Positions 37,478 to 53,734 are shown, counted from the first letter of the stretch. The stretch is DNA of 64,000 bases from Alphaproteobacteria bacterium (GCA_013289265.1 JABDAH010000007.1:1745-65744); one strand, 5' to 3'. Notes: generated from the letters alone by a model not told the origin. Numbers and translations: made by a program.

Positions 37478-38422
37478 ATGAATATTCTTGTGACAGGCAG
37501 CGACGGTTATATCGGCAACGGCTTGGTCAGAAAGCTTCTGGCAGAAGGTCATACCGTTCACTGCGTCGATAAAAAGATTTTCTATAACCTCGAATCTGAC
37601 GGCGTTTCCGGTATTGTGCGCCCCTGCGACGACATCAAGGATATAACTGTCGAGCAACTGCGCCCGATCCAGCACATCATCCATCTGGCCGCTATCAGCA
37701 ACGATCCTGCAGCCGAGTTAGACGCGCGCCTGACATGGGAAACCAATGTTCTGTATACACTGCAGCTTATCGACCGCGCCGTCAAAGCTGGCGTTCCGCA
37801 ATTTACTTTTGCGTCATCAGGTTCGGTTTACGGTTTGAAAGACGAAGACCGCGTCACTGAAGACCTAGAACTGGTGCCATTGACGGATTACAACAAATCC
37901 AAAATGTGCGCCGAGCGCATTCTCCTGAGCTACCGCGATAAAATCGGCCTCACTATCATCCGCCCTGCCACCGTTTGCGGCATCTCAGCGCGTCAACGGC
38001 TCGATGTTGTCGTCAATATTCTGACGTCGCAGGCGCTTAAGAATAAGACCATCAAGCTGTTCGGTGGCGATCAGGTGCGTCCCCATATTCATATGAGCGA
38101 TATGCACGGCCTCTATCTCGCCATCATCAAAAACCCGAAAGCCTATCAGGGCATTTTCAATGCTGGGTTTGAGAATCTAACCAACAAGGAACTAGCCAAT
38201 CTTATCGCCAAATCAACCGGCGCTGCGATTGTGACCACAACATCGAATGACAATCGCAGCTACCGCCTCTGCAGCGACCGCTTGCTGGCCGCAGGCTTTG
38301 TGCCTCAGCACAGCGTCGACGAAGCCGTGAATGACATTACCAACGCGTTTAAGAACGGGTCTTTAAAAGATGGCCCAGAAACGCAGTCTGTACAGTGGCT
38401 GAAAAGTTATTATGGCAAGTGA
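37478..38422 (+). CDS. Extended-SDR NAD-dependent epimerase/reductase (possible GDP-4-keto-6-deoxyhexose reductase)
   Basis: ORF track, 314 aa. Sequence includes MNILVTGSDGYIGNGL...YNKSKMCAE (YxxxK). It starts 5 nt after gmd. Confidence 0.7.
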   Translation: MNILVTGSDGYIGNGLVRKLLAEGHTVHCVDKKIFYNLESDGVSGIVRPCDDIKDITVEQLRPIQHIIHLAAISNDPAAELDARLTWETNVLYTLQLIDRAVKAGVPQFTFASSGSVYGLKDEDRVTEDLELVPLTDYNKSKMCAERILLSYRDKIGLTIIRPATVCGISARQRLDVVVNILTSQALKNKTIKLFGGDQVRPHIHMSDMHGLYLAIIKNPKAYQGIFNAGFENLTNKELANLIAKSTGAAIVTTTSNDNRSYRLCSDRLLAAGFVPQHSVDEAVNDITNAFKNGSLKDGPETQSVQWLKSYYGK

Positions 38423-38460: not shown

Positions 38461-39576
38461 ATGACAAGCGCACCCATTCCGATTTCTGCAAAGAGTTCAG
38501 TTGATGAAATTGAACTTATGGTTGCGAATTATGTGGCAGAAGAACAAGAAATTTATAAAGAGACCGATCCGCGCATTGTACAGCTGGCTGGGTCCCGGCT
38601 GTTTAACAGCAATGGGTTTCCTAATGCCTGCCTGACCCAAAAAAATCTGGGTTATTATCTCGATTCACAGCAAGAAAACAGGGCCACTCTCTATATGCGC
38701 ACTATTGGTAAAATAGACGCAGAAACGGCAGAAATTCTTAAAGACGCTCTGCGTATTTTAGACAAGGCCAATACCGGAACCCAAGGCGCTGGTGGCGGCG
38801 TTAGCGGATTATTACATGGGCTTTATTGTGCCCTGAATGCGCGCAAGATTCTGCCGCAACCTGAGGCGGATCGTCCTGTGTATACGCTGGAGATTGGCCC
38901 CGGCAGCGGCTGGACGACTTACTTTCTCACCCGTTTTGGTTTTCACACCACAACTGTCGATAGCAACCCCAACCTCATTGCCACGCAACGTTATTTGATG
39001 GGCCAGTTGCCACCAGAATGCGCAGCGCATTATTCGCAACTGTCCTGGTGGAAATTTTATGACATCACCTGCGAGCCGCAACATTCCTATGACATGATGC
39101 TGGCCAATCATATGATTTGCGAAATTTCGCAATGGTCCAGGCTTTATATTGCCAAATGGGCTTCTCTCTATCTGAAGGAGAGCGGCGTCATGTTCTTCCA
39201 GGCTTGGGGCAGCGAAGATTTCTATTCCCGTTATGATGCTATCTACGCGCTTAATGCTCATAACATGGAGCTGTTCTCGCGAACTCGCGGCTCGAAAATA
39301 TTGGGGTCATTTTTCAGAAACAAAGAAGAACTTCCGGAAATTAATTTTTTCAGGAAAACACCACCGAATAGAACGGGCCCACTTCATACCTTTATGACGC
39401 GCATCAAAAGAAGGCTGCTACGACTTATGCCATGGACAGGCGCGGCATGGATCGCGAAATTAGAGGTCTATCACATGGTCACAGGCACGTCGGTTGAGCA
39501 AATTATCCGTGAGAGGGGCTATACGGATGCAGCTTTCACTAACCCGTCATTTCTTTGGGCAAAGATATGTCACTGA
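38461..39576 (+). CDS. Putative class-I SAM-dependent methyltransferase with a ~130-aa N-terminal extension
   Basis: ORF track, 371 aa. Motif-I-like YTLEIGPGSGWTTYFLTRFGFHTTTVD. The rest is unrecognised. Confidence 0.5.
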   Translation: MTSAPIPISAKSSVDEIELMVANYVAEEQEIYKETDPRIVQLAGSRLFNSNGFPNACLTQKNLGYYLDSQQENRATLYMRTIGKIDAETAEILKDALRILDKANTGTQGAGGGVSGLLHGLYCALNARKILPQPEADRPVYTLEIGPGSGWTTYFLTRFGFHTTTVDSNPNLIATQRYLMGQLPPECAAHYSQLSWWKFYDITCEPQHSYDMMLANHMICEISQWSRLYIAKWASLYLKESGVMFFQAWGSEDFYSRYDAIYALNAHNMELFSRTRGSKILGSFFRNKEELPEINFFRKTPPNRTGPLHTFMTRIKRRLLRLMPWTGAAWIAKLEVYHMVTGTSVEQIIRERGYTDAAFTNPSFLWAKICH

Positions 39577-40799
39577 TTTCTACGCCTAGCCTGTTTATTT
39601 CACATAGAAGAATGATAGTTGATATAGCGCTTCTGCTCTTCGCCCGCCTCTCTCCACGATTTTTCTCAATTGCCCTTATTATACGTTATCCGGGATATCT
39701 GCGGCATATGGGCATTAGCCGCAAAAGACTACTCAGGAAACTGCGTAAAAAAAGCTACTTCCAGTCTGGGTATCGTGATGATTTTTCTGAAACCTGGCTC
39801 ATTACCGTGCAGCCTCATATGCGCGAAAAAACCATACTCAAGACCTTTGGGCAAAGAATTACCCGCATTATAACGCTGGGGGATGAAGGTCTGTCCGCTT
39901 TTGCTAATCGCGATATTGCCCTTCAATCCATACCGCGTGATTGGATTGCTGCATGGCTGCTTATTCTTGCGAATTTTGGGCAGGAACGCCTTTTTATTCT
40001 CAGTGGCCTGTCGGATTTATGGTTTATGCCACTCAAGGTTCATATGCACAGAACCCATATGGCATTTGATGCTTATGATACCATAGCGGAATACAAAAAC
40101 GGCGCGCTGATGCCCGTTTTGAACAGACTTAACTACAGATTGGGCAGACATTATTTTATACGCGATGCGCGCTTTAAGCAGGCTTTACGCCGTAGCGGCA
40201 ATTGGAGCACGAGTGTTTGTTATGTCCCTGATGCAATGCAGATGGATGTCATTGAAGCGACCGCCCTGATACAGAAATTTCAGCCCACAGAAAAAATTAA
40301 ATTTGTTAGCGCCGGTTGGGTAACGACCGAAGGTGATGGCGGCATTCTGCGTTCATTCAAGCTTATACGCTCCATCTGGCCACAGGCTGAGCTACATTTG
40401 TGCCTGACTCAATTTATGCGTCAGGAAGACCCGTTATTTGCCCCCCTGATCGCCTATATGAGCGCGAATGAAGGGTGCCATGTACATGCGAACCTGCAGG
40501 GCGAAGCCTATCAAACAATGCTTGATGAGGCCCATGTCGGCTTGAATTTGCATGATCCCAATGTTTTCGACGAGAGTTATGCGGACTTCTCCGCTGCCAT
40601 GGTCCGCCGCAGTCCCAGCGCCCGCATTCTTGACTTCGCAGCCCGGGGCTGTGTACTAATGACGACCAAAGAACAACGCTACAGTCAGCACGTATTTAAA
40701 CTGCATTCCCCTCATAAAGCCGTGATTCACTTAACACCAAAAACGAGGCCAGAAGAATTAACGGCACTTTTTGACGGTATCCGCACGCGCGCTCAATGA
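39567..40799 (+). CDS. Hypothetical protein (about 410 aa), possible GT-B-like enzyme
   Basis: ORF track 39555..40799 (TTG), with an internal ATG at residue 5. No diagnostic motif seen. It overlaps both neighbours (ATGA at 40796). Confidence 0.5.
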   Translation: MSLISTPSLFISHRRMIVDIALLLFARLSPRFFSIALIIRYPGYLRHMGISRKRLLRKLRKKSYFQSGYRDDFSETWLITVQPHMREKTILKTFGQRITRIITLGDEGLSAFANRDIALQSIPRDWIAAWLLILANFGQERLFILSGLSDLWFMPLKVHMHRTHMAFDAYDTIAEYKNGALMPVLNRLNYRLGRHYFIRDARFKQALRRSGNWSTSVCYVPDAMQMDVIEATALIQKFQPTEKIKFVSAGWVTTEGDGGILRSFKLIRSIWPQAELHLCLTQFMRQEDPLFAPLIAYMSANEGCHVHANLQGEAYQTMLDEAHVGLNLHDPNVFDESYADFSAAMVRRSPSARILDFAARGCVLMTTKEQRYSQHVFKLHSPHKAVIHLTPKTRPEELTALFDGIRTRAQ

Positions 40800-42055
40800 T
40801 TGCTATCGATATTACAAAATTTCTGAAAAGTTTGCCGCAGGTGCGCGGCCCAGCGGTTTTTCTTAACGCCTTGATTTTTGCATCACTCGACCGGGATATA
40901 CATTTGGCTTTTAATCCGCATTATGTTGGTAGCCAGCTTTACTTCCAGGTTGTGGCGGCCAAAGATTTCCCGACCTTTTGGGAGAGACAAGTAGCTTCAT
41001 ATTACATGCATCATTCGTCACGCTTTAACTTGCGGAGAATCTTGCGGTTTGTGCGCGATCTGATGGTTAAGTTTCACCCCCAATTGGCTGTACGCTACAA
41101 GCTTTTTCAGAAAGCGCGCGGGCGTAGCTCGGTCAATGAATATGCGGCATCTGTGGTTCATCATTCTTCAATCAAACAGATGCTGAGTTTTCTCTCCTCC
41201 GACAGCATGTGGGGGCTGCCGATGCCGGAAACAAAGAAAACTTTGTTTCTCTATGACATTACCTTTTTTGAAATCCTGCGGATGATTTCCTCGCCGGTTA
41301 ATTATAGCTCGAGCCCTTTTATTGTTGGCCACATCATTGATGTTAACCGGGCGATATCGGAAGCGCACAGCATTATGGTACCCACACATTACTTAGCGGA
41401 ACAATTGCCGCATCATTTCCCAGCCGCCGGCAATCGCCCTATAGATGTTGTGCCATTGGCATCAAAAATGTCCGACGGCGCCCTTATGTTCAAGCCGCTT
41501 AAGAAAGACAACACCAGAAATTCTGCGCTTGTTGTTTGCGGTTTCGACGGTTTTAAAAATGACAATAAAGGCATGGGCGCCATTCTGGATATAATATGCC
41601 TTTATAAGAAAATTTATGGCGCTGAAAAGCCCCTGCATTTCACGCTCATCACACCTCAACTTTATGAGCTTAAGCAAAGAATTGAGGATCTTGATATTTC
41701 TGACTGCATCACGCTTAGATCCTGCATTCCGGTTTCGGAATTGATCCGGGAATATAAGCAAGCCAAATTCTTGTGGGTACATTCTATCGATGAGGGTTTT
41801 TGTTTACCGGTCCTGGAAGCCTCTAAACTCGGTACCCCCGTTGTTGTATCAGACGTGCCACCCTTACATGAAATTTGGGACAATACCGTCAACTACATCG
41901 ACGTTTTCAATCGCTATGAAGCCGTTAATCAGCTTTATAACTACAATAACCGCAAGGGCCTAGCAGCTAAAGGTGCAAACACACTTCACGCACAGAATTA
42001 TACGATCGAGAAAACGGCTGAAGGTGTCTGGTCGGCGCTGGCCAGGGTTGCCTGA
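40796..42055 (+). CDS. Family-4 (GT-B) glycosyltransferase
   Basis: ORF track, 419 aa. Sequence includes KFLWVHSIDEGFCLPVLEASKLGTPVVVSDVPPLHEIW (E-x7-E region). Confidence 0.75.
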   Translation: MIAIDITKFLKSLPQVRGPAVFLNALIFASLDRDIHLAFNPHYVGSQLYFQVVAAKDFPTFWERQVASYYMHHSSRFNLRRILRFVRDLMVKFHPQLAVRYKLFQKARGRSSVNEYAASVVHHSSIKQMLSFLSSDSMWGLPMPETKKTLFLYDITFFEILRMISSPVNYSSSPFIVGHIIDVNRAISEAHSIMVPTHYLAEQLPHHFPAAGNRPIDVVPLASKMSDGALMFKPLKKDNTRNSALVVCGFDGFKNDNKGMGAILDIICLYKKIYGAEKPLHFTLITPQLYELKQRIEDLDISDCITLRSCIPVSELIREYKQAKFLWVHSIDEGFCLPVLEASKLGTPVVVSDVPPLHEIWDNTVNYIDVFNRYEAVNQLYNYNNRKGLAAKGANTLHAQNYTIEKTAEGVWSALARVA

Positions 42056-42074
42056 CCCCCATGGAATATGCCCA

Positions 42075-43280
42075 ATGACATCTAAGACAGTTTATTATCT
42101 TGATGCCGGTATTGTTAACAATGTCGGACACAATCTGGAAACAGTCGAGTTCCTCAAAAAATATCTTGGACAACATGCCGATTGCACAGTTGTTGCCGGA
42201 AAGAAATTTGCTGGCAGCGTGGATGGCATACGCGTGTTACCTTTATTGCGTTATGGCTCCCCCCACTGGTCGATGCCAAGCCGCAAGATGCGTTATCTGA
42301 TGGGACTAAGAAGGCGCCTGCGCCTTCCATTCATCGATCATGTTGTTCCCTTGATTAAAGTGAGGGAAATGAAGCAAGAGTTGAGCACACTGTCGTTCCC
42401 AAAAAATGCGCAGATCATCATCAACTCGGTTGAACTGGATGATGCCTATATGCAGTGCGAAGCATTATGGTCGCTGGAACCGACCTTAAACATCAAAGTT
42501 ATTCTGCACTATTCGCCGTTCGATGCGCATTCGGTCATTGTACGACCCAAATTGAAAAGAGCACTGAAAGGGATCAGTAAGCTCTCGCCACAAGATAACC
42601 GCATTACATTCTATGCTGATACAGATAAGCTTTGTCAGGTCTATGCAGCGCTGTTACAGCGGCCGGTAACTTTATTGCCTATCCCCCACGCCAAACGGGG
42701 TGGGAATACCCCCAGAGACAACCCGTCGTCGCCCTACCGGGTAGTTTATTTTGGCACCTATTCCGAGGCCAAAGCCCCTCACTTAATTCCTGAAATCATA
42801 CGCCTGATCCATAAAGACGTGGCGCTGGACTGGTCGGTGTATATTACCTACATCACCAAAAACCCTATCATCGACTCTTTTGAGAGAGAATTACGAACTC
42901 TGGAAACAAAAACCGGAAAATCCATCTATCACACCGGCCCTTTCAGCACACAACACATTGAAGACATCTTTGATCAGAGCGATATTTTTCTGGTTCCCTA
43001 CCACTCCCATGATTACGAGTTGCAATCCTCCGGCGTCGTGATGGAAGCACTGGTATCCGGCAAGGTACCTTTGGTATCGCGATCAATGGCTGATGCCGCT
43101 CTATTGGCCAGGATCGATCCACATCTCGTTTTCCGCCCCAACAATGAAATGGATATTGCGGACAATCTTGAATATATCGCGAAAAACTATTCTGAAATAA
43201 GGGCGAAACTGCGCCCCTTGCAACAACAGATGGAAGCCTTTCATAATCCCGAGACTTTTATCAAAATCTTGCTGGCATAG
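42075..43280 (+). CDS. Uncharacterised GT-B-like protein (paralogue of 55456..56733)
   Basis: ORF track 41973..43280. I start it at the internal ATG (residue 35, MTSKTVYYLDAGIVNNVGHNLETVEFLKKY). The C-terminal region reads IFLVPYHSHDYELQSSGVVMEALVSGKVPLVS. Confidence 0.55.
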   Translation: MTSKTVYYLDAGIVNNVGHNLETVEFLKKYLGQHADCTVVAGKKFAGSVDGIRVLPLLRYGSPHWSMPSRKMRYLMGLRRRLRLPFIDHVVPLIKVREMKQELSTLSFPKNAQIIINSVELDDAYMQCEALWSLEPTLNIKVILHYSPFDAHSVIVRPKLKRALKGISKLSPQDNRITFYADTDKLCQVYAALLQRPVTLLPIPHAKRGGNTPRDNPSSPYRVVYFGTYSEAKAPHLIPEIIRLIHKDVALDWSVYITYITKNPIIDSFERELRTLETKTGKSIYHTGPFSTQHIEDIFDQSDIFLVPYHSHDYELQSSGVVMEALVSGKVPLVSRSMADAALLARIDPHLVFRPNNEMDIADNLEYIAKNYSEIRAKLRPLQQQMEAFHNPETFIKILLA

Positions 43281-43288
43281 GCCCTTAC

Positions 43289-43888
43289 ATGATTGTCGGA
43301 TTGGATCTGGACAACACGATCGTCGATTGCGACACTCTGTTTCAACATCAAGCGGAGGATTTGCTTGGATGTTCGCTCGCAGGAAAATCGCGCGAAGATG
43401 TACGCGCGCTTGTACGCAGTGAACGGGGCGATCATTTCTGGACCCAAATTCAAGCCGAAGTGTATGGCCCGCTCTATCAGGAATGCCCGCCCTGCAACGG
43501 CGCTCTTGAGACAATCGCTCAGATTGCGGCTTCACCACGCGTAACGGATATTATGATTATCAGCCACAAAACCAGGACCGACTCTGCTGGCAAGAATTAC
43601 AAGCTTCGCGACTATGCTACCGCATGGATAGAACGCCATTTGTTTGGCAAAACCTCTTTGACCAAATCCCATATTCACTTCGCAGAAACTATCGGTGAAA
43701 AACTCCAATTGGTTGCCACCAAGGAATGCGATTTTTTCCTCGACGATCTTACCGATATCATCCTGCCATTGCAGAACAGAATTCCCCACCCCGTTCTGTT
43801 TAATCGTGACGCAAAGAATCACCCGATGAAAGACAGCCTGCGCATTTGTGACTGGCCAGCCTTTGGGGCTTTTGTGCTCAATGGCTAG
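43289..43888 (+). CDS. HAD-superfamily hydrolase/phosphatase
   Basis: ORF track, 199 aa. N-terminal MIVGLDLDNTIVDC (DxDxT nucleophile motif). Confidence 0.7.
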   Translation: MIVGLDLDNTIVDCDTLFQHQAEDLLGCSLAGKSREDVRALVRSERGDHFWTQIQAEVYGPLYQECPPCNGALETIAQIAASPRVTDIMIISHKTRTDSAGKNYKLRDYATAWIERHLFGKTSLTKSHIHFAETIGEKLQLVATKECDFFLDDLTDIILPLQNRIPHPVLFNRDAKNHPMKDSLRICDWPAFGAFVLNG

Positions 43889-44834
43889 TCCCGACATCAC
43901 CCAGGATCTGACCCAAATCTTTGGACCTGGAGAATTTACTACTCAGCCGGGACGCGGCAATAGCAGTGTAGGCGTCTGGAATGGGCAGCATCGTTATTTT
44001 GTCAAAGTCTATCCGCAGGATGATAGCTGGAACCGCCGCGCTTCGGAAAAACAGGCGATTGATTACTATCGCCGCCACGGCATAACCAATGTGCCAGAGA
44101 TTCATCACAGCCATGTTGCACTGAATTACAGCGTTTTCAGCTATATCGATGGCACGCCGTACTATGATGTGACGGCGGATGCTTTTGAGCAAATTCAATT
44201 ATTTTTGAGCAAGATAATGAATTTGTCCGCCATTGACGATTTCGTCAGCGAAGCCAAGGAGGCTTTCTTCACCACGACAACCTTAAAGAGCCACATTGAT
44301 AAACGCCTAGTATTCTTGCGCACAATTGATGATCCTATGCTGCAAGAATACCTCAAAGACGGCATAGACGACTGCCTGACTGCTATTAACTATAATGACT
44401 TCCCAGACCGCGACTTTGGCAAAAAGGCCATTATCAGCCCGTCCGATTTCGGCACGCATAACAGTCTCCTGACCGGTGATAAAAGGCTTTATTTCATTGA
44501 TTTTGAGTATGCCGGCCGGGACTCTTTTTTCAAGTTAATGAGTGACATTTACTGGCATCCAGGCAGTAATCTGACGTTAAATCAACGCTCGGAGCTAATA
44601 GCGCCCTATTTAACCGATGCTGAAGATCGTTCGATTTACAGGCTTGTACGGCTGCTTATGGGCATCAAATGGTCTTTATTATTGCTAAATGAATTTATTC
44701 CTTTTAATTTGCAAAGACGCATGAAGGCATCGGGTGATGCAATGGCTGATGCGCAAAAAATTAAAACACAACAGCTTGTAAAATCAAAGAATGTTCTAAG
44801 GCAGGTAATTGATGACTGGCGCTGCGGCATCTAA
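43881..44834 (+). CDS. Choline/ethanolamine-kinase-like (APH-fold) small-molecule kinase
   Basis: ORF track 43848..44834. The internal ATG at residue 12 overlaps the HAD gene stop. Sequence includes ISPSDFGTHNSLLTGDKRLYFIDFEYAGRD (HN..l...// IDFEYa pattern). Confidence 0.65.
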   Translation: MASPDITQDLTQIFGPGEFTTQPGRGNSSVGVWNGQHRYFVKVYPQDDSWNRRASEKQAIDYYRRHGITNVPEIHHSHVALNYSVFSYIDGTPYYDVTADAFEQIQLFLSKIMNLSAIDDFVSEAKEAFFTTTTLKSHIDKRLVFLRTIDDPMLQEYLKDGIDDCLTAINYNDFPDRDFGKKAIISPSDFGTHNSLLTGDKRLYFIDFEYAGRDSFFKLMSDIYWHPGSNLTLNQRSELIAPYLTDAEDRSIYRLVRLLMGIKWSLLLLNEFIPFNLQRRMKASGDAMADAQKIKTQQLVKSKNVLRQVIDDWRCGI

Positions 44835-46383
44835 GAAAACAACAAACTTGCACTCCGTCATTGATGCAGATGCAGCTGGTCCTTCGTCCCTCCCTTCAGG
44901 CGGCGCCCGTAAACTTGTCGGGTTGCAGGGACTAAGCGATATACGCAATCGTTATCCAGATCAGAAAATTGGTCTCTGTCACGGCGCATTCGATGCCATC
45001 CATATTGGCCATATCGAACATATGGAAGAATCCAAAGCACAGTGCGACATTCTGGTAGTTAGTATTACCGGTGACCAGTTTATCACCAAACACCCGCGCG
45101 GTGTTTACCACTCGGCAGCACAACGGGCACAAATGATGGCCAGCCTGTCGGTGGTCGATTTCGTTTACATCGATAATAATCCTGAGGCCATTGAAGTTCT
45201 GCAAAACCTTAAACCGGATTTTTATTTCAAGGGCGTCGATTATGACAAGCAGCTTGAAAAGAACCCGGCCCTGAAACGCGAAGCTGATGCCTGCATGGAA
45301 AATGGCGGCCAGATCGTTTTCACGCAGTCACGCAAACATAGCTCCTCTTACCTGCTGAATAATTTTCTGGACGAGAAGCGCATTATTATTGGCGCCTATC
45401 TGAAGAAATATGGCATTAGCGCCAACGGCGACTATTTAGATGGTATCTACAATGCTTTGGCGACAGCCAATATTCTTCTGCTCGGCGAAGCCATTCTGGA
45501 CGTCTATACTTATGGTTCGCTGACAGGCGTATCCAGTAAATACACGGCCGCCTCGTTCCTGGAAACCAGCACAAAAATGATGGCTGGCGGTTTACTGGTT
45601 CTCATCCCCCTGCTGTCGGACTATGTTCAACAAGTAACGGCGCTGGTGCCCGAAGATTACGTAAAAATGGGCCTTTATAAAAAACGCTCCAATGTATCCC
45701 TGCAGGAACAGCCCTTTCCCTTGGTTGAAAAAACACGGTTCATTTCAGCCAAGAAAAAAGAGCGTTTGTTCGAAACAGTGCGCTTTCTGCATGGGAAAAA
45801 CTTTGCCCTCTCTGGCATTGTTGACGAACTTGTACGGCAGGAGGAGCGCTCAGCCGTCCTAATTTATGACTTCGGTCATGGCTTCTTTGACGGTGCCGCC
45901 CTGATGGAAGCTAATCCCAACCAGTTCTATGCCATCAATGTGCAGGCGAATTCGACAAACTATCCCTTCAATGATGTTCGAAAATATAAACATTTTGACC
46001 TGGTAGCTATCGACGAGCGCGAACTGCGACTTACGATGCGCGACAACAAGTCGAACATTGAAGATCTTATCCAGCTGTTTATTGAAACCTCGCCCATGGC
46101 AGACAAGGCTTATTTCTTCTTTACGTTGGGGGAACGTGGGGCCTGGGGCTATCACAAGGGCGAGAAGGTATTTTGCCCTGCCCTTGTTTCAAGCGTTGTT
46201 GACGCTACGGGTAGCGGCGATGTCTTCCATGCCATTGCTACGCTCTTTATTGTATCCGGCATTAATCTGGGCACAGCGCTATTTTTTGCTAGCCTCTATG
46301 CCGGCCTCTATGCCCAGATTGAAGGGCACGACGGAACCGTTACAAAGCCACAGATCATCAAGGCCATAGCCGCCATGCAATAA
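44812..46383 (+). CDS. Bifunctional protein: N-terminal cytidylyltransferase-like (HxGH) domain plus C-terminal PfkB/ribokinase-family kinase
   Basis: ORF track 44809..46383 (TTG then ATG). The N-domain reads IGLCHGAFDAIHIGHIEHMEESKAQCDILVVSITGD. The C-domain ends ..VDATGSGDVFHA (PfkB signature 2). Domain order is the reverse of E. coli HldE. Confidence 0.7.
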   Translation: MTGAAASKKTTNLHSVIDADAAGPSSLPSGGARKLVGLQGLSDIRNRYPDQKIGLCHGAFDAIHIGHIEHMEESKAQCDILVVSITGDQFITKHPRGVYHSAAQRAQMMASLSVVDFVYIDNNPEAIEVLQNLKPDFYFKGVDYDKQLEKNPALKREADACMENGGQIVFTQSRKHSSSYLLNNFLDEKRIIIGAYLKKYGISANGDYLDGIYNALATANILLLGEAILDVYTYGSLTGVSSKYTAASFLETSTKMMAGGLLVLIPLLSDYVQQVTALVPEDYVKMGLYKKRSNVSLQEQPFPLVEKTRFISAKKKERLFETVRFLHGKNFALSGIVDELVRQEERSAVLIYDFGHGFFDGAALMEANPNQFYAINVQANSTNYPFNDVRKYKHFDLVAIDERELRLTMRDNKSNIEDLIQLFIETSPMADKAYFFFTLGERGAWGYHKGEKVFCPALVSSVVDATGSGDVFHAIATLFIVSGINLGTALFFASLYAGLYAQIEGHDGTVTKPQIIKAIAAMQ

Positions 46384-46385
46384 GG

Positions 46386-47561
46386 CTAGCCGTGTATATA
46401 AAAGAAAAGTGAAATTACGCATAGAATAGCAACAGCGCCACTCATTATGCCACTGGCGACGAAGGCATTTTTTACCTGGAGAGAGCTTCGTGTAGCAATC
46501 CAGCGCCTGCACGGCTTATCGACAAAGGCAAGGGTGAGGGCGGAAACCCCCAACACAACCATTGTAACAACATATTGGTTCGACAAATGGAACTGGTAAT
46601 TCAGCGCAATGAGCAAAGGATAGTGGAGAATAAAAAGTGGATAAGAAATTTCGCCCAGATAGTTAAGTAAAACCGTCAGCCATTGGTTGAGCATTGGTAG
46701 CTTATTTGCGAAGAAAACCAATGTTGAGAATATGTAAAGTGTATAAAGCGAATATTTTCCACCTAAGGGCAGGTAATGATTCAGTAAGACACAGAGAAAA
46801 AGAGGAAAAGTAATTCCCCATACTGCCGACTGATGAAAATAAAAATAGAAACCACAGCCCCAGGCAAAGAACAATGCCAATGCGGCAGTACCGTGTGACA
46901 TATTCGCAAAGTATGGCAATCCAAGATTTTCATGAAACCAATAAAAAACGGCCGATGCGATAATGAGCAAAAGAAACAGAATATGTTTTTTAGATTGAAC
47001 AATTAAAAATAACAAAGGTGCCGTGATGTAGAAAAGCGCCTCTACGGCCAAGGACCAAGAAGTACCGATAATCTGGTCGCCAATAACCCCGTTTAACATT
47101 AAATAATTGATTAGTATTCGCCCAACCTGGGGCAAGGGACCATGCTTCGTGCCGTCGGCAGTAAAAATATCGACCGACATGTAAGCGGCGAGGAAAGCCA
47201 CATAAAATGTTAATGACACCGCAAAAACCGGATAAATCCGGCCAAGTCGTCTTGCATAAAAACCCGACATCTCGCGATTAAAAGAACTGGCAATCGAATA
47301 ACCGGAAATAATCAGAAAGACGAGGATCGCAGCAAATGGCCCCAGTTGGAACAAACGGTAGGTAAACGCTTCGTGTCGAGCCAGCAATCCATAATGCCCG
47401 GCATAGATGATATAAGCCATTATGAAGCGAATAAGCGCCAGATAAGAGAATTGGCTATTCTTATTATGATGAATGGCAGACGGCGCGGTATCGCGATGAA
47501 AGAATGTCACGCGATTAAGTTTTAAAGAAATCATAATCGCCGCTATAACCAACTTCGGCAA
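46386..47561 (-). CDS. Acyltransferase-3 family membrane O-acyltransferase
   Basis: ORF track, 391 aa, with about 10 hydrophobic segments. The start is uncertain (alternative ATG at residue 10). It overlaps the upstream methyltransferase 3' end. Confidence 0.7.
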   Translation of the reverse strand: MPKLVIAAIMISLKLNRVTFFHRDTAPSAIHHNKNSQFSYLALIRFIMAYIIYAGHYGLLARHEAFTYRLFQLGPFAAILVFLIISGYSIASSFNREMSGFYARRLGRIYPVFAVSLTFYVAFLAAYMSVDIFTADGTKHGPLPQVGRILINYLMLNGVIGDQIIGTSWSLAVEALFYITAPLLFLIVQSKKHILFLLLIIASAVFYWFHENLGLPYFANMSHGTAALALFFAWGCGFYFYFHQSAVWGITFPLFLCVLLNHYLPLGGKYSLYTLYIFSTLVFFANKLPMLNQWLTVLLNYLGEISYPLFILHYPLLIALNYQFHLSNQYVVTMVVLGVSALTLAFVDKPCRRWIATRSSLQVKNAFVASGIMSGAVAILCVISLFFYIHG

Positions 47562-48174
47562 ACAACTCTTCCCATTCCGATTCGCGCATAATGGTTTTGG
47601 CGACGAGATTCCAGCTTTCCAACTGTTCCCGTTCTTTCAAGTTTTTATAGCCGTTAACTTTGATAAAAGCTGGACCCTTTGAAACACGCATGATTTCCTT
47701 AAGGGATTGCCGCACGCCCTGTAGATCGAGATTGTGAATAGATGAAATCGCAATCACCAGATCGAAGTTTTTGTCCGGGTAAGGTAGCTTATCGCAACTG
47801 GCCTTCTGCAAATAGGGCGCAACATCCGACATGGCTTTTGATAAAGCGTAATCGGAGATATCGATACCGGCCACTTCCAGCGAGGGCATGGCCAGTTTGA
47901 AGTCATGCAACATAAAACCTTTACCGCAACCGACATCCAGGATCTTGGCGCCCGGCTTCAAGTCGTAATAATAAATAAAATCCCTGACGACCTCGGTAAA
48001 AAATTTGGGATTGTAATGATAACCGCCATACCCAAAGCGCCGCTCGGTATCGAAATAGATTTCATCGAACCGCTGCGCTTTTTCACGATCTTCCTGCGTT
48101 ACTTTGACGCGTTCCGATGTAATTTCTTTGCGCGCAGTCTTCGGGTATTTCCGCATCAGGAAAGTGTTTATCAT
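47515..48174 (-). CDS. Class-I SAM-dependent methyltransferase
   Basis: ORF track, 219 aa. Motif I reads KILDVGCGKGFMLHDF. There is a 4-nt overlap with glf. Confidence 0.8.
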   Translation of the reverse strand: MINTFLMRKYPKTARKEITSERVKVTQEDREKAQRFDEIYFDTERRFGYGGYHYNPKFFTEVVRDFIYYYDLKPGAKILDVGCGKGFMLHDFKLAMPSLEVAGIDISDYALSKAMSDVAPYLQKASCDKLPYPDKNFDLVIAISSIHNLDLQGVRQSLKEIMRVSKGPAFIKVNGYKNLKEREQLESWNLVAKTIMRESEWEELFAEVGYSGDYDFFKT

Positions 48175-49286
48175 TTTAGCTCCTCATAAATGCCAAGCGC
48201 CTGCTCGACACAATCATCGATATCCACCTGATAGTCGTATTTGCCGGCGCGACCGATGGAATACACATTCTTGCCAAGCCGCTTCGCATATTCGTCGTGA
48301 ATGGCACGGAACTTCTTGATCGGCAACGGATAATGCTTGCCGTTGGTGGAAGGCACTTCGAGCCCCAACAATGTACTGGGCGATTTATAGCCCGAGAGTT
48401 TCTTATATTCGACAATGCGGGTATAGGGTTCGGCGTTGGCATAATAGACGAAGAATACATCCTCAGGAAAAGCATGTTCTGTCGGCAAGATAATCGTCGT
48501 CAGATCACGACCCACGAAAGGCAGTTCGCCCAGATCTTCCTTCAGCACCATATCGAGCGCGATGGTATTGACGATTTTGTCATATTTCTTCGGCAAGCCT
48601 TTAACGACGATTTCGCACGTATCGGGACGGATTTCATCGATGGGACAACGCAGATGAAAGGTCGCGAAATCCTGTACCTTGTCAAAGAAATCATTATACC
48701 CGTTGAGCGCGATCGGGTAGGCCGATATGGCCTCGCTCCAGGCGTGCGAGGAGTCTTTCTTGATCGGGGTGCCCTTTGGTGACCAGTTAAAGGTATCGAT
48801 CTGCTTGTTATTCTCAAGCCGCCACATTTTTTTGGAATAGGTGTCGATGAATTTTGAATAGAGAATGGTTCCGACCTTGGAGATCCAGTATTCCTCGAAA
48901 TTCTTCGGCTCCGTAATCTCGACACCCTCAATCGCGTCCAGCTGCTCTTGAATTTCCTTGCCGCGTTTCATGCGTGGAATGTCGCTGGCACTGATCGGGT
49001 AATTGAAAAAGTCAGCTTCTTCTTCCAGATATGTCACGAAGCGATGTTCCAACTTTCGCATCGGCACAATGGAATGCAGATAGTCAAACACTTCCTGCTT
49101 CTTGGTCAGAAAATGGCGGGGCCCGAAAGTATAAGGATGGCCGCCACGGAAATGCGTACGCACGCCAGCGCCTATGGTATTGCCGCCCTCAAAAATTTCT
49201 ATTTCCCAGCCGCCGAGGCGCTGAAATTGATAAGCTGCGGCGCAACCTGCCGTGCCCGCACCGATAATCGCTACTTTTTTCGCCAT
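48171..49286 (-). CDS. glf: UDP-galactopyranose-mutase-like FAD-dependent pyranose/furanose mutase
   Basis: ORF track, 371 aa. Sequence includes KVAIIGAGTAGCAAAYQF (GxGxxG), ..GGHPYTFGPRHFLT..FFNYPI.. consistent with the Glf family. Confidence 0.7.
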   Translation of the reverse strand: MAKKVAIIGAGTAGCAAAYQFQRLGGWEIEIFEGGNTIGAGVRTHFRGGHPYTFGPRHFLTKKQEVFDYLHSIVPMRKLEHRFVTYLEEEADFFNYPISASDIPRMKRGKEIQEQLDAIEGVEITEPKNFEEYWISKVGTILYSKFIDTYSKKMWRLENNKQIDTFNWSPKGTPIKKDSSHAWSEAISAYPIALNGYNDFFDKVQDFATFHLRCPIDEIRPDTCEIVVKGLPKKYDKIVNTIALDMVLKEDLGELPFVGRDLTTIILPTEHAFPEDVFFVYYANAEPYTRIVEYKKLSGYKSPSTLLGLEVPSTNGKHYPLPIKKFRAIHDEYAKRLGKNVYSIGRAGKYDYQVDIDDCVEQALGIYEELK

Positions 49287-49315
49287 CTAACTCAACGCCT
49301 TTTTCAACTGTGGGT

Positions 49316-49768
49316 TTATAGAAATTTTCTTAATTCTTGGCGGCGTTCATCATTCCGCTTGATCATATCGGCGACCTGAAGCACTTTTGCCATCTCTTTC
49401 AATTCATCGTTAGTACGCGCTATTTTCTTTTCCAGCACAAAATGAAAGGTTAGTTTCTTTTGTTGCTGGATATCGAGAATATTTTTCATTTTGCCCGCAT
49501 CCTTGGGCATCATGTGGAAAGAATACATGACGATATTTCCACCAGGCTCAATCGATGTCAGCGTACTGAACAGCTGCATATAACAGCGGGAGAAAATATG
49601 CTCACATTGCGGCATATTATAGCTGAAGTTCATGAGGTTGGCATATTCACGCAGACAGGAATTCTGGGCAGGCACGGGCATTATAAAAGGCCCAAACTGC
49701 TGCGGCGTAACATAGCCCGTAATAGCCAGGGGCTCAGAAGAGGATGTTTTCATTATAAGCCAAGCCAA
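49316..49768 (-). CDS. Hypothetical protein (about 145-150 aa) inside the sugar operon
   Basis: ORF track only. It overlaps the 3' end of the upstream dioxygenase gene. No motif recognised. Confidence 0.5.
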   Translation of the reverse strand: MAWLIMKTSSSEPLAITGYVTPQQFGPFIMPVPAQNSCLREYANLMNFSYNMPQCEHIFSRCYMQLFSTLTSIEPGGNIVMYSFHMMPKDAGKMKNILDIQQQKKLTFHFVLEKKIARTNDELKEMAKVLQVADMIKRNDERRQELRKFL

Positions 49769-50510
49769 TTTTTGTTACTGGCGACATAAACAAAGGTTCA
49801 TAAAAAGTGCCAGTCGTACGTTCATGGGGCACCGCCGCATATTCAGGACTAAAAAGCGATTTGAAACGGCAGTTCAGGGATATGCGGGTTTTATCCGTCT
49901 TATTCAACTGATTGCCATGAAAGAGGGTTGAGCTGAATAAAATACAGTCACCCATCTTGGCATTGGCGATTACCGCATCCTTTTTATTGTCTTCGAACAA
50001 TTCGTTCATGCCTCGATGCTGGTAACTGGGCAAGGCGTCGTAAATTTTCTGACTTTCAGGAGGATGAAAAATATACATGGCGTTGCTGTCAAACGCATCC
50101 GTTACGGCCGTCCATAAGACACATTCAAACTGGCTTTGCCCGCTCATCGTATCGGAATGCATCATAAGGACGGAGCCAGCGTCGTTGGGCATCTGAATGC
50201 TGAGGCATAGTTTGATCTGTATTGAAATATCAGGACCAAACATGGCGCTTAGCTGATCCGCCGCCAGGGAATAATAATCCTTCTTCCAGTTCGGCAGCGC
50301 ATTCAAGGCGTTAAAAATTTTGACGCGCAAAGGGTTGATCTGTTCAACTGTTACATATTTATGGAGAAGATTAAGATCTTCGATGGGATAGCCAACAAAT
50401 TCTTCGGCGACGTCTTTAAAAACCTTCCGGAAACGCGCAAAAGTTTCGGGCTGTGCATTGGGAAAAACGGCGTAGCGATTGCGTTCAAAAGTATCCAGAA
50501 AAACACTCAT
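49734..50510 (-). CDS. PhyH-like Fe(II)/2-oxoglutarate dioxygenase
   Basis: ORF track, 258 aa. Sequence includes LMMHSDTMSG (HxD) ...LFHGNQLNKTDKTRISLNCRF (distal His and Arg). Confidence 0.65.
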   Translation of the reverse strand: MSVFLDTFERNRYAVFPNAQPETFARFRKVFKDVAEEFVGYPIEDLNLLHKYVTVEQINPLRVKIFNALNALPNWKKDYYSLAADQLSAMFGPDISIQIKLCLSIQMPNDAGSVLMMHSDTMSGQSQFECVLWTAVTDAFDSNAMYIFHPPESQKIYDALPSYQHRGMNELFEDNKKDAVIANAKMGDCILFSSTLFHGNQLNKTDKTRISLNCRFKSLFSPEYAAVPHERTTGTFYEPLFMSPVTKIGLAYNENILF

Positions 50511-51418
50511 GCTGCCTGTCCTTTTTCACGGGCTTCTAGAAGAAAGTCTTTAACGACCTTCAACGCATTGTAGGGCGGAAATGACAATGGCTTATAGATG
50601 CTTGTAAGGGTTTGAGCCGGAGCGGTCGCAGGAACTTCGTCCCATAAATCATAGTCAGCCGCTTTTAAAATAGCGCGTAAATTACTGCTTTCGGAAGCAA
50701 ATATATTTGTCGTTAGGCACGCAGTCGAGCCCTTTCCGGTGAAGCCCTTAAAGGCCTCAAATAAAGCCCAACCGGGGCACACGGCATTGAAGGCAGCATC
50801 AGGATTAGCGATTTTGAGGCGAGCTTTTTGTTCTATCGCCAGTTTCCATTTGGATATGAAATTATATTTCACACCGTCGACAAGAAGAACCGGGACCCTT
50901 AGGCCCAACATATTAATTTTTGTCTGGCTATGAAGGGTTGCCATCTCGTGCTCAAACACCAGCTTGGATAAGCCGTAGGGATCGAGATGGGTTTTCTCGC
51001 TCATTTCGTTCAGAACGCTACCTTTGGTGCGATTGTAAACGGCGCTGGAAGATAGATAGAAAATATCTTTCAAATTGCCCGAACCGGCCATGTGCTGGAA
51101 AAGCGCCATCACACCATATACGTTACCGGCATAATAATTATCGAGGGAGCCACTCATATTATTACCCGGCGTAACAGAGGCCAGATGGATAACTGTATCG
51201 ATCGTTTTTAAAGCTGGCAAAGCGAGCATTTCCGCAGACAAATTAGAAAAATCAATTTGCAACGGCTTCAAGCGCGGGAGATTGAAAGCTGGTGCGTTTT
51301 TATTGTAGGCCGCATAAAGAGTCGCGTTCGGAAAATCCTGCGTCAAGCATTTGCAGAAGAATGCGCCGATAGGGCTGCTCGCGCCAGTAATGAGGATATT
51401 TTCAGCTGCCATAACCAC
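50507..51418 (-). CDS. NAD(P)-dependent epimerase/dehydratase-family protein
   Basis: ORF track, 303 aa. Sequence includes ILITGASSPIGAFF...YGLSKLVFE (YxxxK). There is a 4-nt overlap with the downstream gene. Confidence 0.7.
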   Translation of the reverse strand: MVMAAENILITGASSPIGAFFCKCLTQDFPNATLYAAYNKNAPAFNLPRLKPLQIDFSNLSAEMLALPALKTIDTVIHLASVTPGNNMSGSLDNYYAGNVYGVMALFQHMAGSGNLKDIFYLSSSAVYNRTKGSVLNEMSEKTHLDPYGLSKLVFEHEMATLHSQTKINMLGLRVPVLLVDGVKYNFISKWKLAIEQKARLKIANPDAAFNAVCPGWALFEAFKGFTGKGSTACLTTNIFASESSNLRAILKAADYDLWDEVPATAPAQTLTSIYKPLSFPPYNALKVVKDFLLEAREKGQAA

Positions 51419-51420
51419 TC

Positions 51421-51987
51421 CTACTTTATGTGTTCTTCCATCATCCGCATGGCGGCGTGGGCGATCATCAACTGCAGATCTTCGGCAACCTGCATATCGT
51501 CCAGTTCCGCATGCAGCAAAATATCAACCATTGCCTTGGCCTTGCCGCCATTAAAGCCCAGCATGCCAAGTGTCTTTGCGCTGCGGGCTTTGGCCACTTC
51601 CAGCGCCTTGATGATATTGGGTGAATTACCGCTACCACTCAGAACAACCAGCAGATCATTCGGCTTTAGTTTATTTTCCAGCTGGTGCGAGAAAATCTTG
51701 TCATAGCCGATATCGTTGGCGAGACATGTCAGGACAGAGCTGTTGGCGGGCAAAGCTTCCACATTGAACCGGCGGCCTGCATCGCAATAACCATAGGTAA
51801 AGTCGTTAGCCATATGGATGGCATTAGCCGCACTGCCGCCATTGCCGCAAATATAAATCACGCCACCTTTGCTTTTGGCTTCCAGCATCGCCTCTTTCAG
51901 CATACCGCCCCAAAGCGTAAGGGACTTGCGAATATCGACCGCCTCCCACGCCTGAAGGTATTTTTCCATATCCGTTAGTGTCGTCAT
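51421..51987 (-). CDS. gmhA: SIS-domain phosphoheptose isomerase, copy 2
   Basis: ORF track, 188 aa. Sequence includes IYICGNGGSAANAIHMANDF...LLVVLSGSGNSPNII. Confidence 0.8.
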   Translation of the reverse strand: MTTLTDMEKYLQAWEAVDIRKSLTLWGGMLKEAMLEAKSKGGVIYICGNGGSAANAIHMANDFTYGYCDAGRRFNVEALPANSSVLTCLANDIGYDKIFSHQLENKLKPNDLLVVLSGSGNSPNIIKALEVAKARSAKTLGMLGFNGGKAKAMVDILLHAELDDMQVAEDLQLMIAHAAMRMMEEHIK

Positions 51988-52904
51988 TGGATCATCTCTT
52001 TAATTGTTTGCTCAATCGATTGGCGGTCTAACCCGTTTACCTTCAAAGCGGATGGCCGCAACACTGTGGTATTAAATTCCGCTTCCGTCACGCATTTGAT
52101 TTCAACTATGGGCAGTTTCTGCTTTTTCTGTATAGCAGCCGCTAGAATTGAATTTGCCAGCGATCCTACAAGACGATTTTCTTCCAAAAACAGTACCTTA
52201 TCCAGCATGGGGGACACATCTTCTGAAAGATAAGCATGCCAGTCAATAACAGAACGTACGGCAACCGATGCCTGCCCCTGCAGCGCTTTCCTAGCTTCCA
52301 GCGCTTCTTCGGTAATAGCGCCGTGAGTGATGATTTCTACATCTGTTCCCGGCCAATATTTATAACTTCCGTGATGCGTGAAATCGGGAAAATCCGCAAA
52401 AAGCTTACGCTCGCCGCCTTTCTGCAAACGCAAATAGCAGGGTGCTGGTACGACCTCATCAGCAAAAAATTTATCGGTCAGATCGGCGACATCCTGCGCA
52501 TCACAAGGTGTATAAATACGCATATTGGGCAAAACATGCAGTAAGGCCAGGTCTTCAATTCCGTAATGCGTGAAGCCCAGAGAGTCATAAGCAAAACCTG
52601 CACCGACACTGCAGACGATGAGAGGCGATTTGGAATAGGCAACATCGACGCGCAGCTGGTCATGCACGCGTGAAGTAATAAAAGGGTTGATGGTATAAAC
52701 CATGCTCGTAGCATTGAGCGCAGATGAAAAGGCCGCAGCGTACGAAACCATATGCTGTTCGCTAATGCCAAAATTATGGAATTGGTTTGGCCTTTCCACA
52801 CGCAGAGCATCGAACACACCAAAACCGATATCGCCGCAAAACAAATGATGTTTGGGGTTTTTCGCAAAACATTTTGCGAGAGTGACACCGAGTGCTTTTC
52901 TCAC
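51984..52904 (-). CDS. Transketolase, C-terminal (pyrimidine-binding) subunit
   Basis: ORF track, 306 aa. Sequence includes FHNFGISEQHMVSYAAAF... There are 4-nt overlaps on both sides. Confidence 0.8.
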   Translation of the reverse strand: MRKALGVTLAKCFAKNPKHHLFCGDIGFGVFDALRVERPNQFHNFGISEQHMVSYAAAFSSALNATSMVYTINPFITSRVHDQLRVDVAYSKSPLIVCSVGAGFAYDSLGFTHYGIEDLALLHVLPNMRIYTPCDAQDVADLTDKFFADEVVPAPCYLRLQKGGERKLFADFPDFTHHGSYKYWPGTDVEIITHGAITEEALEARKALQGQASVAVRSVIDWHAYLSEDVSPMLDKVLFLEENRLVGSLANSILAAAIQKKQKLPIVEIKCVTEAEFNTTVLRPSALKVNGLDRQSIEQTIKEMIQ

Positions 52905-53734
52905 GCTACCCCTGCCTTTAACTCTGCTTCCATGCGCTGCAAATCCTGTTCAGACGCGCGCTTGGCGTGCCACTCAGTAACACCTTCGGTAAAGCTGATG
53001 CCCTTGCCCTTCAGGGTATTGGCATTGATGAAAAAGGCCTGATTTACAGCCTCCATTTTATCAATAATCTGCCGCAACGCCTCAACATTATGCCCGTCGA
53101 CTGAAGCGCATTGAATGCTGAAATCCTTGATCTTGGCCTCGATCGGCTCAATCGGGCGGATATCCTGCGTGGCGCCAAGTGATAGAAATTTGTTGTTGTC
53201 GAGAATGATCGTTAGCGGGAATTTGTCATCGTGGCTGAGGTGCAGCAAGGCTTCCCAGTTGGAGCCTTCATGCATTTCGCCGTCGCCGAGAATGCAGGTC
53301 ACGCGACCTGACTTGCCAGCAAAGCGCAAGGCACCCGCAAGCCCCATGCTAATGGAAAGCCCGTGCCCCAGAGAGCCCGTTGACCAGCCGATGCCAAGCG
53401 ATGGATCACGCTTGATGTGGCCCATAAAGGCGCCGCCGTCCTTGCAGTAAGTCGCCAGTTTTTCATCCGGGACAATGCCGATGGCATTGAGCAAAGCATA
53501 AACTGCAAGCCCGCAATGGCCCTTACTGAGAACCAAAGTGTTGCGATCGATAAAGTCTTTGAATGAGAGTTTTTTGGCGATGACCGGCGCATAATAGGCC
53601 ACCAATATTTCGGTGACCGAGAAGGAGCCGCCGAAATGCACACTGCCAACGCTACGCGCGGTTTTGATAATATTCAGGCGAGTTTGACGGGCAATTGAGT
53701 CGTACATTTGGAATCGAAATAAGGTCAGTGCCAT
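52901..53734 (-). CDS. Transketolase, N-terminal (TPP-binding) subunit
   Basis: ORF track, 277 aa. Sequence includes HFGGSFSVTEIL..LSKGHCGLAVYA..GSLGHGLSISMGLA..ILGDGEMHEGSNWEA. Confidence 0.85.
   Translation of the reverse strand: MALTLFRFQMYDSIARQTRLNIIKTARSVGSVHFGGSFSVTEILVAYYAPVIAKKLSFKDFIDRNTLVLSKGHCGLAVYALLNAIGIVPDEKLATYCKDGGAFMGHIKRDPSLGIGWSTGSLGHGLSISMGLAGALRFAGKSGRVTCILGDGEMHEGSNWEALLHLSHDDKFPLTIILDNNKFLSLGATQDIRPIEPIEAKIKDFSIQCASVDGHNVEALRQIIDKMEAVNQAFFINANTLKGKGISFTEGVTEWHAKRASEQDLQRMEAELKAGVA

Follow-up and report, generated by a model that had tools for sequence, protein, structure and literature searches.

A nucleotidyltransferase-kinase fusion with the domain order of HldE reversed, and a phosphatase-kinase pair beside it, in a surface-glycan locus of an alphaproteobacterium

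What do three overlapping genes for a phosphatase, a kinase and a two-domain enzyme make in the middle of a bacterial glycan locus? The question is raised by positions 43,289 to 46,383 of a 64,000-nucleotide (nt) stretch of DNA from an Alphaproteobacteria bacterium (GCA_013289265.1, JABDAH010000007.1:1745-65744), hereafter the window, which belongs to a metagenome-assembled genome (MAG) of 1.49 Mb that is 63.6% complete. An earlier note, made from the sequence alone, had treated the three genes as a single unit leading either to an activated heptose or to a CDP-linked phospho-substituent. The third gene encodes a genuine member of a large, unstudied family of fusions in which the predicted activities of HldE occur in reverse order, and this enzyme most likely helps build a cell-surface sugar. 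The first two genes form a separate pair that is tied to a split transketolase. The three genes, and the two domains of the fusion, are:

43289..43888, + strand: HAD-superfamily phosphatase, capped, with a 5'(3')-nucleotidase-like fold, 199 amino acids (aa); the protein begins MIVGLDLDNT
43881..44834, + strand: small-molecule kinase of the APH/choline-kinase fold, 317 aa from its ATG (PF01636, 1.4e-8)
44812..46383, + strand: nucleotidyltransferase-kinase fusion, predicted to be bifunctional, a single open reading frame (ORF) of 523 aa (ATG 44812) or 524 aa (TTG 44809), from Pfam, NCBIfam and an AlphaFold2 (AF2) model
44911..45408, + strand: HldC-like HxGH nucleotidyltransferase domain of the fusion, residues ~35-200 (rfaE_dom_II 3e-22; HldC 5x9q 6e-10)
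45421..46380, + strand: predicted HldA-like PfkB sugar-phosphate kinase domain of the fusion, residues ~205-524 (rfaE_dom_I 3.4e-11; Foldseek HldA)

The N-terminal nucleotidyltransferase and C-terminal PfkB kinase that the earlier note had read in the fusion are both recovered by Pfam, as CTP_transf_like at residues 57-156 (1.1e-11) and PfkB at residues 392-506 (8.7e-13). The best NCBIfam models are the two halves of HldE, and they stand in the inverted order that had also been proposed, with rfaE_dom_II at residues 48-180 and rfaE_dom_I at residues 216-507. Alignment to the HldE model agrees: the N-terminal domain of the fusion maps onto positions 337-465 of the 475 in that model, and the canonical HldE proteins of relatives carry HxGH at residues ~335-400, their C-terminal domain being the one that aligns with the nucleotidyltransferase domain of the fusion. 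The closest solved structures found by sequence in the PDB are Burkholderia HldC (5x9q, 6e-10) and HldA (4e84, 9.5e-5). The AF2 model of the fusion, built on 37 relatives, has a predicted local distance difference test (pLDDT) score of 87, with disorder confined to the first 32 residues; in Foldseek, B. cenocepacia HldA takes the first seven places (E 1e-18 to 7e-17, template modelling (TM) score 0.70-0.77 on the target), and ribokinases come next at 1e-14.

Both domains have kept their catalytic motifs. In a 37-sequence alignment, HxGH (H65, G67, H68) and an SSS..N motif (S178, N184) are invariant in the nucleotidyltransferase domain, as are GG (G260/G261), NVQxNSxN, DERE and DxTGxGD (D465, G468, G470, D471) in the PfkB domain, which suggests that the two active sites are functional. 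Some features are the family's own, such as a 7-8-residue insertion after KGxDY, an extended NVQxNSxNYxFN motif in the kinase domain, and a second nucleotidyltransferase motif, FTxxxx(H/F)SS(S/T), from which the Gly is absent, next to the invariant HxGH. A scheme of the 3'-phosphoadenosine 5'-phosphosulfate type, in which the PfkB domain would phosphorylate the ribose of a nucleotide, found no support, the kinase being closest to HldA.

How widespread is this arrangement, and could it be an accident of assembly? When 1.84 billion representatives were scanned in full with HMMER, with clusters defined at 50% identity, at least 458 clusters were found to share the architecture at E<1e-30, nearly all of them about 500 aa long and aligned end to end. 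Complete plasmids of two cultured strains, Azospirillum oryzae KACC 14407 and Solidesulfovibrio carbinolicus DSM 3852, also carry the fusion. The artefactual joining of two genes, which the earlier note had named as a possible refutation, is ruled out by these hundreds of clusters and finished plasmids. The closest named relative, at 71% identity, comes from an uncultured Rhodospirillaceae MAG; a profile search of genome contigs gave six loci, the carriers including Pelagibacteraceae and Woesearchaeota, and a phage collection yielded one partial match, to the nucleotidyltransferase only. The architecture had been described as uncharacterised, and so it appears: no characterised member was found, RefSeq labels the protein of both cultured carriers only as 'PfkB family carbohydrate kinase', none of the curated NCBIfam models fits the fusion, the HAD protein or the APH kinase, and a literature search on cytidylyltransferase/PfkB/HldE domain order found nothing specific to the swapped fusion. 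On the A. oryzae plasmid (locus L063) and on S. carbinolicus pDCAR1 (L064), the gene lies amid genes for SIS and SDR proteins, pairs of thiamine diphosphate (ThDP) enzymes, aminotransferases and radical S-adenosylmethionine (SAM) enzymes, and on pDCAR1 it adjoins pseudaminic-acid genes.

Two variants bear on the origin and likely role of the family. Five short soil contigs (L056-L060) encode the two domains in neighbouring, unfused ORFs, a nucleotidyltransferase of ~137 aa followed by a PfkB kinase of ~300 aa, as in the fusion. These pairs may represent the ancestral arrangement or frameshifted assemblies; their order gives a hint that the fusion and HldE have independent origins. Conversely, a 699-aa relative (P0172) is a triple fusion of a GmhB-type HAD phosphatase (PNK3P/Hydrolase_like), an HxGH nucleotidyltransferase and a PfkB kinase, and thereby links the family to the scheme of isomerase, kinase, phosphatase and nucleotidyltransferase by which heptoses are activated.

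Does the fusion belong with the two genes that precede it? As far as layout is concerned, the overlaps that had been noted are real. The kinase gene opens with an ATG at 43881, its first 8 nt coinciding with the end of the HAD gene (aATGGCTAG), and the fusion starts 23-26 nt inside the 3' end of the kinase gene, whose stop codon is 44832-44834; all the motifs quoted in the earlier note are likewise in place (the kinase has THN and IDFEYAG, the fusion CHGAFDAIHIGHIEH and DATGSGDVF). An alternative GTG start of the kinase at 43848, giving 328 aa, is unsupported because homologues align with the complete 317-aa form (100% coverage). A gene for a GT4-type glycosyltransferase ends 8 nt upstream of the HAD start, and this tight spacing places the GT4, HAD, kinase and fusion genes in one packed operon starting near 36.4 kb. 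Only 2 nt separate its end from that of a convergent operon on the minus strand (46386-53734), so that the stop codons of two long operons, at 46383 and 46386, leave no space for a terminator between them.

What did not hold is the single three-gene unit. Window proteins were scored against the neighbourhoods of the fusion in 39 distinct relatives (at most 90% mutual identity), and counts were taken from the 23 whose sequence extends over 8 kb or more. The HAD and APH genes occur in 6 of these 23 loci, always together and always with a split transketolase, mostly adjoining it; a JGI contig and locus L062 also have the transketolase. HAD-APH fusion proteins of 523-549 aa exist as well, with HAD N-terminal to the APH kinase and the HAD half matching that of the window (BLASTP 7e-14 and 1e-12), and in two independent contigs such a fusion directly precedes the genes for the N- and C-terminal transketolase subunits (TK_N and TK_C). 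HAD-APH fusions of 523-572 aa beside TK_N/TK_C were seen in L022 (10001-11647), L013 (4648-6363), L034 (7937-9560) and one JGI contig, one of them coming from a Methanosarcinales MAG. Elsewhere, an unfused kinase at 29% identity overlaps TK_N, with no nucleotidyltransferase-PfkB gene in view at that locus. HAD phosphatase and APH kinase thus make a pair of their own, linked to the split transketolase, an association of which we found no description, while the fusion travels with GmhA-like and SDR genes. As their partners differ, the three genes make up two sub-modules.

The identity of the pair was examined in turn. The HAD phosphatase proposed in the earlier note is borne out by the four motifs of the superfamily (DxDxT, S/T, K and DD), which are invariant in 35 homologues (D6, D8, T10, S92/T95, K138, D152/D153), and by an AF2 model (pLDDT 96.7) with HAD-fold matches. 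The window protein has no Pfam or NCBIfam match of its own, and single-sequence PDB searches with the HAD protein and the kinase returned nothing meaningful. As a profile of the HAD family gave only noise against the PDB, the fold was taken from AF2 and Foldseek, where the first 14 PDB matches are 5'(3')-deoxyribonucleotidases, mitochondrial or cytosolic (mdN/cdN), or designs on that scaffold (E 2e-8 to 8e-7, TM ~0.65-0.70). A homologue at 66% identity passes the PF06941 NT5C cut-off (25.7 bits versus 24.8), which the window protein itself does not match. The kinase matches PF01636 APH with 35.2 bits against a cut-off of 23.2; 36 homologues all retain its ATP-binding Lys, catalytic D...HN loop and IDFEY metal site (invariant K42, E56, D189, H193, N194, D207), and the best PDB match of its family profile is the pneumococcal LicA choline kinase (4r77, 2.7e-7, N-lobe only). 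The choline-kinase-like label given earlier is therefore right as to fold and carries no information on substrate; the protein matches PF01636 only, and not the choline-kinase family PF01633.

Does the resemblance to LicA mean that the genes produce a CDP-linked donor, such as CDP-choline, CDP-ethanolamine or a CDP-polyol, with the APH kinase acting like LicA and the HxGH domain as a cytidylyltransferase? In PDB sequence searches that domain does match ethanolamine-phosphate (4e-8) and glycerol-3-phosphate (8e-8) cytidylyltransferases, as the kinase profile matches LicA. However, it scores 79 bits against rfaE_dom_II, twice the 38 bits obtained against TagD, and it shares one polypeptide with an HldA-like sugar kinase and is accompanied by GmhA-like and HldD-like partners; the kinase, for its part, lacks a PF01633 match and is linked to transketolase genes. 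No LicD-type, CDP-alcohol or phosphoethanolamine transferase gene was found between 29.7 and 58.8 kb. We consider such a donor very unlikely, and the LicA/LicC phosphocholine route was rejected in view of the HldC-like scores, the HldA-like fusion partner and the lack of a LicD-type gene in that interval. Of the two readings offered by the earlier note, heptose activation is therefore the better supported, by the HldC and HldA matches, the GmhA-like and HldD-like partners and the triple fusion, whereas the CDP-phosphoalcohol route fares poorly.

The kinase might also act on a finished polymer. In E. coli O9a, methyltransferase and kinase activities jointly cap the chain, and a WbdD-like chain-terminating kinase, to which the HAD protein would be unrelated, would suit a locus that is ABC-transporter dependent and contains methyltransferases. 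However, the kinase recurs in fusions with a phosphatase, an enzyme that would reverse phosphorylation of the polymer, and the kinase gene adjoins transketolase genes in loci that have other exporters and none of the transporter genes of the window. There is hardly any chance that this is its role, and a WbdD-like terminator was rejected because of the HAD fusions and the transketolase linkage.

A further option is that the pair resembles GmhB and HddA, i.e., that it combines a distal phosphatase with an anomeric kinase and feeds a second nucleotidyltransferase, in which case the locus would make two NDP-sugars (NDP, nucleoside diphosphate) and adjacency to the fusion would reflect operon packing. 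Several APH-fold enzymes, namely MtnK, NahK and AmgK, do phosphorylate the anomeric position of sugars, HAD-APH fusions exist, and several related loci have a separate NTP_transferase in addition to the fusion. Yet the HAD and APH genes of L001, L030 and L047 have no NTP_transferase within ~10 kb, and the pair is linked to the transketolase and not to any nucleotidyltransferase. The HAD protein, moreover, is nucleotidase-like: it does not match TIGR00213, and its fold is capped and NT5C-like, as opposed to the capless, histidinol-phosphatase-like fold of GmhB. All this makes a GmhB/HddA-like pair improbable. The HAD protein was also rejected as the GmhB of the pathway, since its fold is not the right one and contig 4 of the same genome encodes a canonical GmhB (67676-68161, 147.5 bits, E 2.4e-43), so that the HAD protein is not needed in that capacity.

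With which genes, then, does the fusion work? The region from ~30 to 59 kb of the window is a glycan locus with a Wzm/Wzt-type ABC transporter, and it contains glycosyltransferases, acyltransferases, methyltransferases, a GDP-mannose dehydratase and a separate GDP-heptose set. Its relevant features are:

32717-33280, 33373-34122 and 56761-57828: GDP-heptose set, in this order GmhA (near its cut-off), NTP_transferase and GHMP kinase
37478..38422, + strand: HldD-like enzyme of the SDR epimerase/dehydratase family (best NCBIfam model TIGR02197, ADP-heptose 6-epimerase, 1.5e-23, below cut-off)
39555..40799, + strand: conserved 414-aa protein, possibly a divergent GT-B glycosyltransferase (weak Glyco_trans_1_2, E 0.012)
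41973..43280, + strand: GT4-type glycosyltransferase directly upstream of the HAD gene (PF13692/PF00534)
47515..48174, - strand: class I SAM methyltransferase, 219 aa (PF13649/PF08241)
48171..49286, - strand: Glf-like NDP-sugar pyranose/furanose mutase (PF03275 GLF, 6e-26)
49316..49768, - strand: LIC12192-family 'sporadic carbohydrate cluster' protein, 150 aa (TIGR04323, 4.9e-34, 117 bits versus a cut-off of 55)
49734..50510, - strand: PhyH-like 2-oxoglutarate (2OG)-Fe(II) oxygenase, 'sporadic carbohydrate cluster' (TIGR04324, 4e-78, 262 bits versus a cut-off of 150)
50507..51418, - strand: second SDR, 303 aa (PF01370), which recurs in several related loci
51421..51987, - strand: GmhA-like SIS isomerase (TIGR00441 gmhA, 2.4e-35, 122 bits, below the cut-off of 209)
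51984..52904, - strand: C-terminal (pyrimidine-binding) subunit of the split transketolase (PF02779/PF02780)
52901..53734, - strand: N-terminal (ThDP-binding) subunit of the split transketolase (PF00456; NF004559, 9e-48)

The most constant neighbour of the fusion is the HldD-like SDR, present in 22 of the 23 scored loci, followed by the GmhA-like SIS isomerase and the 219-aa methyltransferase (15 each), a GDP-mannose dehydratase-like SDR (14) and the split transketolase (10); the GLF and 2OG oxygenase genes, like the HAD-APH pair, are found in 6. In the 71%-identical relative, the cassette is colinear on one strand, in the order TK_N, TK_C, SIS, GLF, methyltransferase, an SDR (SDR314), a 422-aa protein, HAD, APH and fusion. 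As the cut-offs of TIGR04323 and TIGR04324 are both passed, the cassette is the one on which those models were built. Literature searches on 'sporadic carbohydrate cluster' and LIC12192 found no paper, and one on transketolase in O-antigen clusters found nothing specific. The 39555-40799 protein matches, at 1e-154, a gene of L001 located between SDR and HAD; neither this protein nor the 425-aa product of 55456-56733 (- strand) has a significant Pfam family.

Taken together, a domain-swapped analogue of HldE that makes a heptose-type NDP-sugar for the exported glycan, with the HAD-APH-transketolase genes as a side module feeding it, has in our estimate a slightly better than even chance of being the correct interpretation. 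The domain-swapped HldE reading is preferred because HldC and HldA are the closest solved structures, the neighbours are GmhA-like and HldD-like, and a GmhB-like phosphatase is fused in the triple-domain relative. A course of events may be proposed, in which substrates, order of steps, nucleotide and product are our suggestions. The GmhA-like isomerase (51421-51987) would make an aldose phosphate of heptose type, whose anomeric hydroxyl (C1) would be phosphorylated by the HldA-like PfkB domain; a phosphatase would then take off the distal phosphate, and the HldC-like HxGH domain would couple the sugar-1-phosphate to a nucleotide, by homology most likely ATP, yielding an NDP-sugar. This sugar could be tailored by the SDRs, 2OG oxygenase, methyltransferase and Glf-like mutase of the cassette, before GT-B glycosyltransferases place it in a glycan to be exported by the Wzm/Wzt-type ABC transporter. 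As for the side module, the APH kinase may install, and the HAD phosphatase later remove, a phosphate handle on a substrate or product of the transketolase, the module as a whole supplying an unusual ketose phosphate to the isomerase and fusion steps.

Does the organism need the fusion for its ordinary heptose? Canonical full-length HldE (~1e-146) is present in five tested relatives, two of them of the same genus. Among 40 relatives searched with the fusion, 36 match only in the nucleotidyltransferase region of a ~490-aa ORF and three not at all; G013 alone spans both domains and is the only one with a gene of the swapped type. Since relatives carry canonical HldE and the genome encodes GmhB elsewhere, the fusion is an accessory, locus-specific enzyme, which would add to the housekeeping ADP-heptose enzyme rather than replace it. 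Up to three routes of heptose-type activation seem to operate in the organism.

Several observations weigh against a domain-swapped HldE. The HldE-family models are far under their cut-offs (68 versus 521 bits for NF008454, 79 versus 181.5 for domain II, 43 versus 345 for domain I), and the heptose nucleotidyltransferase motif (F/L)XXGXSTT is altered to FTxxxxxSSS. A complete GDP-heptose set (GmhA, GHMP kinase, NTP_transferase) is already present in the locus and HldE in relatives, and the assembled part of the window genome, which is 63.6% complete, contains no canonical HldE. Finally, the HAD fold is nucleotidase-like and not GmhB-like, and the role given to the HAD-APH-transketolase module is deduced from gene linkage only. 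As HldE, GmhB and the GDP-heptose set already exist in the lineage, the product may well differ from ordinary D-glycero-D-manno-heptose.

Could it be no heptose at all? The transketolase is informative here. In all 11 cassette transketolases examined (those of the window and of L005, L013, L022, L030, L033-L036, L039 and L047), the ThDP and catalytic residues and R358 are kept and the H261 loop is absent, and relative to E. coli TktA, S385 is replaced by G or N, H461 by G, D469 by L and R520 by K; in the C-terminal subunit of the window, S385 is G, and R358, E411 and H473 are retained. These substitutions indicate a probable alteration of the sugar-binding pocket and suggest a non-canonical substrate, be it another acceptor or another donor. 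The fusion might accordingly activate a non-heptose sugar, the altered transketolase building an octulose, nonulose, deoxy or branched ketose phosphate, and the GmhA-like isomerase, PfkB domain, HAD phosphatase and nucleotidyltransferase domain converting it to a new NDP-linked higher-carbon sugar, in parallel to the lincomycin octose route. This would explain why transketolase, HAD, APH, SIS and fusion genes share one cassette in the window and its closest relatives, why the SIS partner falls short of the GmhA cut-off, and why there should be what seems a redundant third route to ordinary heptose beside HldE, GmhB and the GDP-heptose set. However, the kinase domain is closest to HldA specifically, and 13 of the 23 relatives have no transketolase in view, most of them keeping SIS, SDRs, methyltransferase, PhyH or GLF, so that the fusion does not depend on the transketolase. 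On balance, a non-heptose product is unlikely, if worth keeping in mind. A more ambitious proposal, to which we give about one chance in a handful, is that the HAD-APH pair, altered transketolase, GmhA-like isomerase and fusion form a previously undescribed chain-extension route to a new NDP-linked C8/C9 or otherwise unprecedented sugar. A sugar would first receive a phosphate and then gain two carbons; isomerisation, phosphorylation at C1, distal dephosphorylation and activation with a nucleotide would follow. If true, many uncultured bacteria and some archaea would have a new sugar in their surface glycans.

NDP-heptoses are used to build lipopolysaccharide, capsules, S-layer glycans and antibiotics, and they also serve as ligands of the innate immune sensor ALPK1. 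Heptose surveys that rely on HldE models would overlook or mislabel the fusion family, which marks a conserved cassette that has been recognised only as a 'sporadic carbohydrate cluster' and that ranges from marine and soil Proteobacteria to Methanosarcinales. As cultured carriers exist, the question is open to direct testing.

How, finally, does the system compare with those already known? The 'sporadic carbohydrate cluster' of TIGRFAMs/NCBIfam shares with the window both marker proteins, which score above cut-off in the convergent operon, but its models name these two proteins only, the fusion, HAD and kinase having no curated model. With LicA/LicC phosphocholine activation, the common element is the APH/choline-kinase fold, LicA being the best solved relative of the kinase; however, PF01633, LicB and LicD are lacking here, LicC has the NTP_transferase fold and not that of an HxGH enzyme, and the kinase is linked to a HAD phosphatase and a transketolase. 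The lincomycin octose route (LmbR, LmbN, LmbP, LmbK, LmbO) also runs from a C-C bond-forming enzyme through a GmhA-like isomerase, a kinase, a phosphatase and a nucleotidyltransferase to an NDP-octose. It does so with a transaldolase and with separate enzymes of other folds in an antibiotic cluster, whereas the window has a split transketolase in a surface-glycan locus. The GHMP-kinase/NTP_transferase pathway has the same logic of isomerase, anomeric kinase, phosphatase, nucleotidyltransferase, SDR tailoring and FADH2-type pyranose/furanose mutase in a surface-glycan locus, but it uses a GHMP kinase and an NTP_transferase-fold enzyme and lacks the transketolase, APH kinase and 2OG oxygenase; the window holds a set of this type apart from the fusion (56761-57828, 33373-34122).

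Closer are the HENases of Tang et al. (Science, 2024), of which commentaries list three types, i.e., monodomain, kinase/nucleotidyltransferase and isomerase/kinase/nucleotidyltransferase (PMC11461863, PMC11573728). They have in common with the fusion the nucleotidyltransferase superfamily and its joining to a heptose-type kinase. As summarised in these commentaries, the kinase precedes the nucleotidyltransferase wherever both are present, and the fusion has the reverse order (PMC11461863, PMC11573728). Their hallmark (F/L)XXGRSTT, described in one of them as typical of NTP-promiscuous heptose nucleotidyltransferases (PMC11573728), is absent from the window fusion, which has ...SRKHSSS at this place, with no Arg before the serines (KHSSS). 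The nearest system remains HldE itself, with which the fusion shares the PfkB kinase and HxGH nucleotidyltransferase families, GmhA-like and HldD-like partners and, in one relative, a fused GmhB-like phosphatase. It differs from HldE in its reversed order, in scores far below the cut-offs and in the altered STT motif, and it stands as an accessory gene in a variable glycan locus, beside the canonical HldE of its relatives.

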